Assembly: GCA_951406725.2 (NCBI GenBank) | Contig: OX597815.1 | Span: forward strand, 98,704,001 to 98,768,000 | Reading direction: 5' to 3' | Length of the DNA: 64,000 bases | Source of the DNA: Octopus vulgaris | Lineage: Eukaryota | Part shown: one piece after another, positions 8,704-41,992 of the stretch | Layout of the letters: the number at the start of each line of letters is the position of its first letter | How positions within the stretch are numbered: position 1 is the stretch's first letter | Position numbers and translations under genes: made by a program | The notes under the pieces: model-generated | Database searches by the model: none | What the model was told of the DNA's origin: nothing | Seen by the model: the letters and a program-made list of their open reading frames with translations, nothing else

Positions 8704-9061
8704 AAAGGTAAAAACATAGTAAAGATCCCCTTCGATCATGAATGACCATGGGACTGCACCAAGAAAGTTCCCCTCCACGGCACAAAGCCGTGCAAGGTTG
8801 TTTTGTGGAACACCAGTAGTTGGCCCATTCACACCAGTCTGCCTTCTTCACTCTACCGATTTTGTCCAAGGGAAAGGCAAAGGCTGAAAACAACATGGCA
8901 CCATTGACGTTACGACTCATTTCTACAGATGAATGAACTGTATCAACGTGAAATAAAGCGTCTTGCTCAAGAAGAGCACAACAGATAGCCCGATCCGAGA
9001 ATCGAACTCAGAACCTCACATTTATAAGTCCGATGCTCTAACCACTGAGCCATGTACTTTC
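8704..9061 (-). mobile_element. tRNA-derived SINE, CORE-like body, tail B
   Basis: The reverse complement has an A box (TGGCTCAGTGG) and B box (GAGTTCGATTC). It then has CTTGAGCAAGACGCTTTATTTCACG and the same tail as 18685 and 41669. Confidence 0.85.
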
Positions 9062-20027: not shown

Positions 20028-20335
20028 TATATACAAGAAGTAAATGGATGTAAATAACAAGGGGAAACTCGTCGTTCTGGTATGCCTTTAGATAACAAAG
20101 AAAGAGGAAGCAATGATGAAGGTAGCATTTACGATCGTTTCGATTTACAAGTTTTAGTGAATCTCTTCAGAATGCGAAAAATAGATTGGTACAATGATTG
20201 GTAAATTGAAACGATCGTAAATGCTACCGTCATCATTGCTTCCTCCTTCCTTGTTATCTAATCAAATTAAAAGCATACCAGCGAAAGCGACGAGTTTCCC
20301 CCTTGTTATTTACACCCTTTTTCTTCTCGTATATA
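20028..20335. mobile_element. Fold-back non-coding element (inverted PLE pseudo-LTR-like) carrying a hammerhead
   Basis: Arms 20028-20148 and 20201-20335 are reverse complements with small indels, around a ~52-nt spacer. Both outer ends are TATA tracts. Confidence 0.8.
20125..20175 (-). ncRNA. Type I hammerhead ribozyme (canonical core)
   Basis: Minus strand: GCATT-CTGAAGA-GATTCAC(TAAAACTT)GTAAATC-GAAAC-GATC-GTA-AATGC. It has a 5-bp stem I, CUGANGA, stem II, GAAA, a palindromic stem III (ACGATCGT) and a GUA cleavage triplet. Confidence 0.88.
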
Positions 20336-24663: not shown

Positions 24664-25060
24664 TGCCACAGGAGTGGCCTTGTGGTAAGTAGATTGCTTA
24701 CCAACCACATGGTTTCGGGTTCAGTCCCACTGCGTGGCACCTTGAGCAAGTGTCTTCTACTATAGCCTCGGGCCAACCAAAGACTTGTGAATGAATTTGG
24801 TAGACGGAAATTGAAAGAAGACCACCGTATATATATGCATGCGTGTTTATGTTTGTGTGTCTGTGTTTGTTTCCTAAAATCGCTTGAAAACCGATGCTGC
24901 TGTGTTTACGTCCACATAACTTAGCAGTTCAGCAAAAGAGCCCGGTTGAATAAGTGCTAGGCTTACAAAGAATAAGTCCTGGGTTCGATTTTCTCGATTA
25001 AAGGCGGTGCTTCAACATGGCCGCAGTTAAATTACTGAAACAAATAAAAGAATAAAAGAA
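24664..25060 (+). mobile_element. tRNA-derived SINE family E, full length with internal (TG)/(TA) tract
   Basis: GTGGCCTTGTGGTAAG...GGGTTCAGTCCC head, CTTGAGCAAG body and (AATAAAAG)n tail. Other copies are at 45170, 45710, 40828, 41215, 19745 and 37870. Confidence 0.85.
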
Positions 25061-39289: not shown

Positions 39290-39555
39290 TTCAGGACATC
39301 CGTATACCGCAAGCTGGCCTTCACTGGACGATACCTCAACTTCAGCTCCCACCATCCATACAGTGTAAAGAGAGGGATTGCTCAGTGCCTAAAACATCGA
39401 GCAATGAATATAAGTAGAAATGATCAAGCTCAGTAACAATCTATTAAGCAACAACTACCCGCCAAAGCATATTCTCCACTCCAATTAGGAAGTAAAGAGA
39501 GGATGAAAGCGATAAACTACCCTATGTGAAAGGCCTCTCCGAAAAGATACAAAAA
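39290..39555 (+). mobile_element. Penelope-like fragment, inverted relative to 40375-40672
   Basis: RTSVYRKLAFTGRYLNFSSHHPYSVKRGIAQCLKHRA. It is the reverse complement of part of the neighbouring PLE, with deletions. Confidence 0.85.
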
Positions 39556-39723
39556 TGTTTCACTTCCTTTTAAAAAATGAAAATTTTCTGAATTTTTAAC
39601 TATATCCTTATTATTCATTATAAACTCTGAATTTCCTTGCCTAGAACTTTCATGCATACTCACCTTGTACTTTATTTACATTATTTATATTTCACGAATA
39701 TTTGTCTTCATCTTGTTTGTTGT

Positions 39724-39770
39724 TAACACAACGTTTCGGCTGATATACCCTCCAGCCTTCATCAGGTGTC
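39724..39770 (-). ncRNA. Minimal hammerhead ribozyme in the PLE 3' terminus
   Basis: GACAC-CTGATGA-A-GGCTG(GAGGGTATAT)CAGCC-GAAAC-GTT-GTGTT. Stems I and II are present, with a palindromic AACGTT in place of stem III as in PLE minimal HHRs. Confidence 0.85.
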
Positions 39771-39835
39771 TTGAGGACATTTCGAACCTGGGTCCTCATT
39801 CCTAAGGTATTTTTCGATATTATTATTATTATTTT

Positions 39836-39905
39836 TACTGCCTGAAATCGAACTCGGAATCTTGGGGTTAGTAGCCCGCGCTACTAAACACTACGCCATA
39901 TGCCC
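39836..39905 (-). promoter_or_regulatory. tRNA-like Pol III cassette (A and B boxes) inside the PLE 3'UTR
   Basis: GGGCATA-TGGCGTAGTGTTTAG-TAGCGC-GGG(CTACTAA)CCC-CAAGATTCC-GAGTTCGATTT-CAGG. The acceptor and T stems pair poorly, so it is not a functional tRNA. Confidence 0.7.
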
Positions 39906-40827
39906 GTGAACAATTATGGAGTGAATTTTAGGGCTTATAAATCTAATATTCTCCTATCCTTCCTTAATACCGGTTCCCATATGCTGTTCATAACTGCACT
40001 CGGTCTGCTTAAGAGGTTGTTGTGTCCTAGTATATGTGCTACTTCTTTTAGTTTTCGTATTTTCCAGTGGTATTCTCTGTCTATTATCTTAACTTCATCC
40101 CACCGAGGGAGGTGGTCTCCGTTTTTCCATGCATGATCAGCTATACCCGATTTATCAATATCTCCTCGTGTCACAACTTTACGATGTTCCTCTACCCTTA
40201 TTTTAAAGGGTCGGAATATTTCGCCTTTGTATAACCAACCACAGCTGCATGGGATAGAGTACACGCAGTCTTTGGTCATATTCTCTTCTATTGGTGGTTT
40301 TACTCGAAGGAGATATCTGTGAAGTGTTGCATTACGTTTGAATACTGTCCTCATGTCATATAGGCCGAATATCTTTTGTATCTTTTCGGAGAGACCTTTC
40401 ACATAGGGTAGACAGACTGTAAACAGTTTATCGATTTCATCCTCTCTTTTCATCCTAATTGGAGTGGAGAGTATGATTTCGGGGTAGTTATTGCTTAATA
40501 GATTGTTACTGAGCTTGATCATTTCTTCGTGGTGGGTATCACGATCGCTACTTATATTCATTGCTCAATGTTTTAGGCACTGAGCAATCTCTCTCTATAC
40601 ACTGTATGGATGTTGGGAGTTGAAGTTGAGGTATCGTCCAGTGAAGGCCGGCTTGCGGTATACAGATGTCCTTGATCAATTCTGTGAAGTGGGTAGAATT
40701 CTTCACGTACGATGTTGACTTTCCCGCTAATTGATTGATTATATCCACAAAGAATCGATTCAGTGGATGACATGTTGAACCTCTACAGCTCACTATAGGT
40801 TTTAATGGAATGTCATCCTTGTGAATG

Positions 40828-40955
40828 AGGCCGACAGAATGAATACTAGGCTTAAAAATTAAGTCCTGGTGTTAATTTCGTTGACTAAATTCCTTCAAGG
40901 TGGTGCTCCAGCATGGCTGCAGTCAAATGACTGAAACAAGTAAATGAATAAAAGA
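40828..40955 (+). mobile_element. SINE family E, 3' end
   Basis: GGTGCTCCAGCATGGCTGCAGTCAAATGACTGAAACAAGTAAA tail. Confidence 0.8.
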
Positions 40956-41105
40956 ACACACACACACACCCATTGATATATGTGTTCGTGTGTATATTTA
41001 TATGTGCATTGTGTATCTGTGTATGTATATATGTATGTATGTATGTATATATATATGTATGTATATATATATATATATATATACATACATACATACATAC
41101 ATACT

Positions 41106-41668: not shown

Positions 41669-41992
41669 TGAAGGTGCATGGCCCAGTGGTGAGAGAGCGT
41701 CGGTCTCAAAAACATGAGGTAGTGAGTTCGATTGCTGGACCGGGTTGCATGTTGTGTTCTTGAGCCAGACACTGTATTTCACGTTGCTCCAGTTCACTCA
41801 GCTGTAGAAATGAATTGCGACATCACTGGTGCCATACTGTATCGCCCTTTGCCTTTCCCTTAGATAGGGGAAGCTGATATGCATTAGCAACTGCCAGTCT
41901 TCCATAAACAACCTTGCCCAGACTTGTGCATCGGAGGGCAACTTTCTAGGTGCAATCCCATGGTCATTCATGACCGAAGGCTGTCTTTACTC
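41669..41992 (+). mobile_element. tRNA-derived SINE, CORE-like body, tail B
   Basis: TGGCCCAGTGG and GAGTTCGATT boxes. It ends GGTCATTCATGACCGAAGG, like 18685 and 8704. Confidence 0.85.

Follow-up and report, generated by a model that had tools for sequence, protein, structure and literature searches.

The 3' pseudo-LTR (pLTR) of a Penelope-like element (PLE) in Octopus vulgaris opens with a tRNA-derived segment that has kept its A and B boxes and ends in a minimal hammerhead ribozyme. Copies that bear the open reading frame (ORF) carry this tRNA-derived head as a rule, and it is a feature of the family, not a one-off SINE insertion. We propose that a borrowed tRNA-type promoter ahead of the ribozyme probably lets short, protein-free copies spread by means of the parent's enzyme. 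The window, the whole stretch of 64,000 nucleotides that was analysed, holds the 3' pLTR of one old, broken and internally deleted copy on the minus strand, and all of the motifs named in the first-pass annotation are present there, on that strand and in their places.

Features of the PLE 3' terminus and of the adjoining ORF remnants, in window positions.
Feature	Position	Strand	Remarks
PLE RT N-terminal (fingers) fragment	40677..40832	-	translation IHKDDIPLKPIVSCRGS...; motif also in P0051-P0053
PLE RT thumb and C-terminal endonuclease coding region	39935..40672	-	stop codon ends at 39935
Short inverted repeat over 5' end of head	39896..39921	-	majority letters at 39909, 39910
tRNA-derived head	39836..39905	-	boxes kept, cloverleaf lost
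A box	39898-39889	-	in head
Anticodon-like loop	39874-39868	-	arm GGG-CTACTAA-CCC at 39877-39865
B box	39855-39846	-	in head
(AAT)5 spacer	39819..39833	-	between head and ATG/ribozyme part
ATG 39799 and second GTTCGA	39772..39799	-	inferred 5' end of next tandem copy's ORF
Stem arms and loop motif	39798-39792 / 39778-39772; GGTTCGAAA at 39788-39780	-	7-bp stem, second B-box-like motif in loop
Minimal type I hammerhead	39725..39770	-	core CTGATGA 39765-39759, GAAA 39737-39734
A/C-rich 3' segment and common 3' boundary (39666-39678)	39667..39724	-	depth drop, loose ends

The copy probably belongs to a high-copy octopus PLE family of the Penelope/Poseidon type. The nearest named relatives of the PLE frame are predicted proteins of Octopus sinensis (73%) and O. 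vulgaris (79%), and in longer homologues (48–62%) an RVT_1 reverse transcriptase (RT) domain sits ahead of the region matching the ORF. The order in this copy–RT fingers, thumb, endonuclease-like part–fits the single-ORF EN+ PLE layout. The RT core is missing through an internal deletion near 40672 that fuses the fingers fragment to the thumb, the alignment of the RT-bearing P0017 begins only at 40672, and with the core deleted and two in-frame stops upstream of 40564 the copy is dead. The deletion falls in short sequence common to both sides of the junction (40672-40680), like a microhomology-mediated deletion. The ORF had been annotated as a GIY-YIG ORF; its identity as a PLE ORF is borne out by the RT-bearing homologues, and the GIY-YIG domain itself is unsupported by Pfam for the endonuclease fragment. 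We take the GIY-YIG label of the C-terminus from the familiar PLE endonuclease motif together with those homologues. Inspection by eye shows no Cys-rich linker in P0051-P0054. The locus has the 3' pLTR alone, and this copy does not have the 3' extension shared by other copies, which is seen in loose contig ends and in P0024, which reads on into it. We note that 113 nt beyond the 3' end there is, on the opposite strand (39290-39554, plus), a further piece of this ORF with 82% identity; it begins within a few bases of the position of the main copy's deletion junction at 40672. The PLE fragment is bordered on its 5' side by another repeat (40824-40956, minus; 73% to 24935-25060), which it apparently cuts off.

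The head begins about 30 nt past the ORF stop. It is tRNA-derived in its boxes and is not a tRNA, since Rfam gives no tRNA match even at E 10 and ARAGORN makes no call in the window. The Rfam matches listed for the whole window (150 of 335) are microsatellite-driven miRNA matches. The predicted fold of the head is not a cloverleaf, and the tRNA models recognise none, unlike what a functional tRNA gene would give. The spacing pattern of A and B boxes has three matches in the window against 0.02 expected, and none of 100 shuffles reaches three; besides this head, the pattern picks out two tRNA-type heads of another kind. The window has at least six further tRNA-type SINE heads (9002-9052, 10471, 18740, 19616, 41679-41731 and 43587), all distinct, which match the PLE head at 39–46 of 66 letters; the original paper on octopus SINEs is that of Ohshima and Okada (1994). 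With such heads nearby, a chance SINE insertion had to be excluded. As the first-pass annotation remarked, no target site duplication (TSD) is evident: in the 40–56 nt stretches searched on either side, neither the tRNA part nor the unit as a whole is bracketed by a direct repeat of at least 6 nt. The unit is also no classical tRNA-SINE with a LINE-derived tail, a simple-repeat end and a TSD, and its 3' part is PLE pLTR.

The family was surveyed in four of the 24 listed sequencing runs, compared with 39500-40400 at 80% likeness: three contig sets (X2 and X3, listed as probable DNA, and X6, of unstated kind and handled as DNA) together with one raw RNA run. Since summing contig depth does not give copy number, only the shape of the depth profile is used, which is the same in all four. 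The bin between stop codon and head is as deep as the ORF end (1.02, 1.00, 1.10 and 1.04 relative to it), and a paralogous contig (X2 contig 1) joins ORF and head, spanning 39866-40203 with 58 differences in 337 nt (about 82% identity). The junction depth and this contig together make the head a family feature and uphold the earlier judgement that the segment is no chance SINE; the converse, that most copies might be without the tRNA segment, is removed by the same depth.

Depth climbs beyond the junction. The head is 2.05, 2.41, 3.00 and 1.65 times as deep as the ORF, and the ribozyme is 4.9–20.6 times as deep as the ORF end and 3.0–6.9 times as deep as the head, so that much ribozyme-bearing sequence is without this head. 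Contigs with loose ends at 39905/39908 number 70+70, 90 and 54 in the three DNA runs, at a site among the six listed per run and adjoining private changes of this copy; in the best 24 of 2164 rows they have a median of 63–254 unmatched letters with an agreement of about 0.44. Comparable numbers (125+62, 186 and 149) have loose ends at the 3' boundary (39672/39677). At the head, the flanks open with the head's initial bases in short inverted form, and each of the three DNA runs has contigs over 39909 with 64–67 letters left to their end. An inverted repeat here (39896-39921), decayed in this copy, measures about 10 bp in other copies and would mark the 5' boundary of ORF-less ones. From these contig data, ORF-less copies starting at the head probably exist, and may have a defined 5' end. 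The excess depth and the loose ends point to non-autonomous copies of the tRNA-plus-ribozyme kind that the first-pass annotation suggested. The constant co-occurrence of tRNA part and ribozyme is weakened by the depth of the latter; linkage from head to ribozyme is seen in this copy only, the AAT run being skipped as a repeat in the comparison. To the eye, the translated paralogue P0042 resembled a diverged copy whose tRNA head precedes the ribozyme frame; it was rejected, as its score of 14.0 is reached by 26 of 150 shuffles and it is also outscored by two unrelated heads. The single RNA run, apparently unstranded and from a library unsuited to detecting cleavage products, has no peak of starts or ends, including at 39730. 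Of its matched reads, 63% continue into sequence of a different kind, which is what copies embedded in other transcripts would give, and the run speaks neither for nor against a Pol III RNA. The index of sequencing runs lists no RNA run as containing the sequence, which has no bearing on its expression.

In the hammerhead, stem I measures 5 bp and stem II 6 bp; CUGAUGA is followed by a single additional A, GAAA comes after stem II, and stem III consists of the palindrome ACGU only; the triplet is GUU and the cut is predicted after 39730. A minimal-hammerhead descriptor finds two sites in the window, this one and minus 20170, and none in 60 simulated windows; together with the ORF homologues this bears out the reading of the locus as a PLE 3' terminus with a minimal hammerhead. 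In the proposed check against hammerhead models, Rfam Hammerhead_3 scores 13.1 bits (E 1.9), below its gathering score; no match in the region reaches a gathering score. As modelled, the ribozyme is an ordinary minimal PLE hammerhead that is predicted to be unable to fold as an active monomer. Minimal hammerheads are known in PLE ends, and the excerpts of PMC4209133 used here report no cleavage in vitro for single minimal motifs; excerpts of PMC11167929 describe the Anolis PLE ribozyme as needing protein and as dispensable for insertion. The self-cleavage proposed in the first-pass annotation is weakened by the bare palindrome of stem III and by these reports. A free fold of two ribozyme copies gives a mixed structure, on which we place no weight. 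The window holds no second copy of the unit, and no tandem hammerhead units occur at the locus. A metagenome scan for the ribozyme returned three loci, none of the octopus PLE family, and scans of viral and prokaryote collections gave no matches. The site at minus 20170 is a second PLE-type hammerhead candidate (20050-20320) with a palindromic stem III and a GUA triplet, lying in one arm of an inverted duplication of about 270 nt that adjoins a tRNA-type SINE.

Between spacer and ribozyme, the annotation had placed a 'B-box hairpin' as a designed part. The 7-bp stem turns up in about 2% of shuffles of the same 61-nt stretch, and the family majority differs from this copy at 39794 (98–99.9%), 39778 (91–99.7%) and 39774 (72–96%) in the four runs; since these letters break three of the seven pairs, the hairpin is private to this copy and is rejected as a family feature. 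The GTTCGA within it is apparently kept in the family, to judge by the loose-end letters. The frame from ATG 39799 reads through the ribozyme, and a search with its translation returns 28 matches, of which 12 are of close type, 13 belong to a family further removed, one is an Octopus bimaculoides gene model and two are unrelated. Methionine stands in the 39799 column in 11 of the 12 close-type matches (15 of 28 aligned), and the five that start there reflect a gene-calling bias; five of the 13 distant matches share an upstream Met of their own. The common 3' ends (39666-39678) fall at +122 to +128 from this ATG. By analogy with the Anolis PLE, 39799-39667 may be the 5' end of the ORF with sites for RT recognition and priming; the reading is one of analogy because no full-length ORF or protein among the translated matches examined joins the Met-39799 frame to an RT.

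Several other features of this region are of note. In Octopus bimaculoides P0020, named dystrobrevin beta isoform X1, 22 residues match the ribozyme/tail frame at 91%, possibly as an exonised copy. Members of the distant family (P0021, P0023, P0025-P0027, P0029, P0030, P0032, P0035 and P0043) consist of tandem ribozyme-bearing units of about 39 codons and are retrozyme-like, and several distant-family members keep Val-Arg just ahead of the ribozyme, where this copy has GTTCGA. The majority letters at 39770-39780 (minus) give stem I a 5' end with a stretch of pyrimidines that closes in AG, at the place where the intron of Drosophila virilis Penelope ends (PMC4209133, in part); no spliced reads are among the joints listed.

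The reading that we favour, though with reserve, is that a Pol III promoter captured in the pLTR yields a short RNA which the PLE protein copies in trans as a SINE-like element. The anatomy, the family-level link of ORF to head, the excess of 3' parts and the non-conserved hairpin are observations; the steps that follow are conjectural. The head would be the captured promoter with its start near 39905, and no run of four T would stand in the way of a transcript that crosses the ribozyme and the A/C-rich segment, the first such run beyond the head lying at 39583 in this copy. The 3' part would be the ORF's own 5' end, the counterpart of which in the Anolis PLE carries RT binding and internal priming sites: there the ribozyme overlaps the beginning of the ORF, priming by the RT takes place at +111 to +118, a template of the first 172 nt is enough, and the main substrate is uncut RNA (PMC11167929, in part). 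With such sites in its 3' part, the short RNA would suffice as a template. Left uncut, it would hold both promoter and RT-priming end and could spread in SINE-like, PLE-dependent fashion. In single copies the ribozyme would for the most part be inactive; a cut at 39730 would leave promoter and priming end on different pieces, which fits the monomer-silent ribozyme of PMC4209133 (excerpts). In ORF-bearing copies the unit would act as a pseudo-LTR, and may be either the source of the short copies or a unit taken up at the ORF end. A depth gradient rising to the 3' end is also expected from plain 5' truncation, and this counts against the mechanism.

The most serious alternative, which we regard as unlikely but worth keeping in view, is that the head is a fossil passenger: a tRNA-SINE head that inserted a single time into the 3' UTR of a master PLE and has been carried along by passive copying since, with a Pol II promoter driving the element and the gradient due to 5' truncation. 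The abundance of tRNA-type heads agrees with this, as do the steady climb in depth from ORF to ribozyme, the lack of a discrete RNA in the one RNA run, and the apparent use of Pol II-type internal promoters with introns by those PLEs whose promoters were tested (PMC8557442, in part). However, each of the three DNA runs shows an accumulation of 5' ends at the head, the majority letter of the family at 39888 (95–98% in four runs) gives a better A box than that of this copy, and the head fills 70 of the 135 nt from the stop codon to the putative start codon, leaving little room for another promoter. Were the head only a passenger, the locus would be an ordinary PLE end with an old SINE scar.

We consider it improbable that the whole autonomous PLE is driven by Pol III, with the head of the upstream pseudo-LTR transcribing the next tandem ORF and translation proceeding without a cap. 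The sense strand has no run of four T in 1159 nt, where 2.7 are expected by base shuffle (P 0.05) and 2.9–4.3 by synonymous recoding (P 0.007–0.03), and its Phe codons are seven TTC and three TTT, but the count comes from one decayed partial copy, was tested after being noticed, and is not significant by dinucleotide shuffle (P 0.21). A T-poor sense strand is, moreover, common in retroelements. Ribozyme-linked cap-independent translation in RNA viruses (PMC13725137, in part) offers a parallel, but the predicted cut lies inside the putative ORF, at +70. In its full form, with a captured tRNA gene as promoter of an autonomous PLE, Pol III reading a multi-kilobase ORF that is translated cap-less, and a pLTR that doubles as a PLE-dependent SINE, this reading is just as doubtful; if true, it would supply a concrete mobilising partner for Sm-alpha-like elements. 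Very unlikely is the strong form of the first-pass proposal, a self-contained unit with a functional B-box hairpin whose ribozyme cuts out monomers as a retrozyme: Sm-alpha works that way (PMC6765202, in part) and 10 of the 13 distant matches have tandem ribozyme-bearing units, but the hairpin is not conserved, the minimal ribozyme needs a dimer or protein, the window has a single unit, and each of the 12 close-type peptide matches shows no more than one stretch that matches.

In the usual description, SINEs ride on LINEs. If the captured-promoter reading is true, a tRNA-headed element with a Penelope pLTR as its 3' end would be a SINE riding on a PLE, the PLE counterpart of TRIMp3, and would tie the schistosome repeats that combine Pol III boxes and hammerheads to the recent proposal of a PLE origin for animal retrozymes. 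Because the unit would be common to parent and short form within a single genome, the existing in vitro PLE assay makes it possible to test which enzyme mobilises such elements. Our literature search, to which Repbase, Dfam and most subscription literature were external, found no report of a tRNA head in a PLE pLTR or of a PLE-dependent SINE, and the words 'hammerhead' and 'ribozyme' are absent from text and supplement of the 2026 O. vulgaris repeat annotation. The element is a family-wide composite of known parts in an arrangement that we did not find described, and it may already be catalogued.

The comparisons that follow draw on excerpts of the works cited. The octopus element resembles known PLEs (PMC4209133; Anolis PAc, PMC11167929) in having an RT followed by a C-terminal endonuclease and a minimal type I ribozyme. 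Such PLEs have their pLTRs in tandem or partial tandem and an optional tail of 30–40 nt, to which the shared 3' extension of other octopus copies may correspond. The octopus ribozyme agrees with PLE ribozymes (PMC4209133) in that stem I is short, stem II long and stem III a palindrome, with an additional base behind A9, and the ORF probably starts near the ribozyme, as in PMC11167929. Unlike the PLEs in these accounts, it has a tRNA-derived head with A and B boxes that fills about half of the spacer from stop to start. Schistosoma Sm-alpha and Sj-alpha are also high-copy short elements in which a tRNA-derived Pol III promoter precedes a hammerhead (PMC6765202, PMC2770079), but the Sm-alpha ribozyme is shown to cut multimers, the element is arranged in tandem, and those texts name no autonomous partner; the octopus unit, in contrast, has a minimal PLE-type ribozyme and sits on an ORF-bearing PLE. 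Non-LTR retrozymes are likewise non-autonomous with a type I hammerhead and a proposed origin from PLE pLTRs (PMC7229834; bioRxiv 10.64898/2026.07.22.740005), but they are defined by tandem units each with a ribozyme, whereas the octopus copy is single and has a tRNA head. In the TRIMp3 elements (Helenus, Ajax and Cassandra), too, Pol III boxes of a small RNA were captured in a terminal repeat, where the boxes persist and the structure is lost; these are LTR-element derivatives with a primer binding site (PBS), polypurine tract (PPT) and TSD, without a ribozyme, and their autonomous partner is expected not to share the promoter (PMC10886601), whereas the ORF-bearing copies of the octopus family do carry the head.
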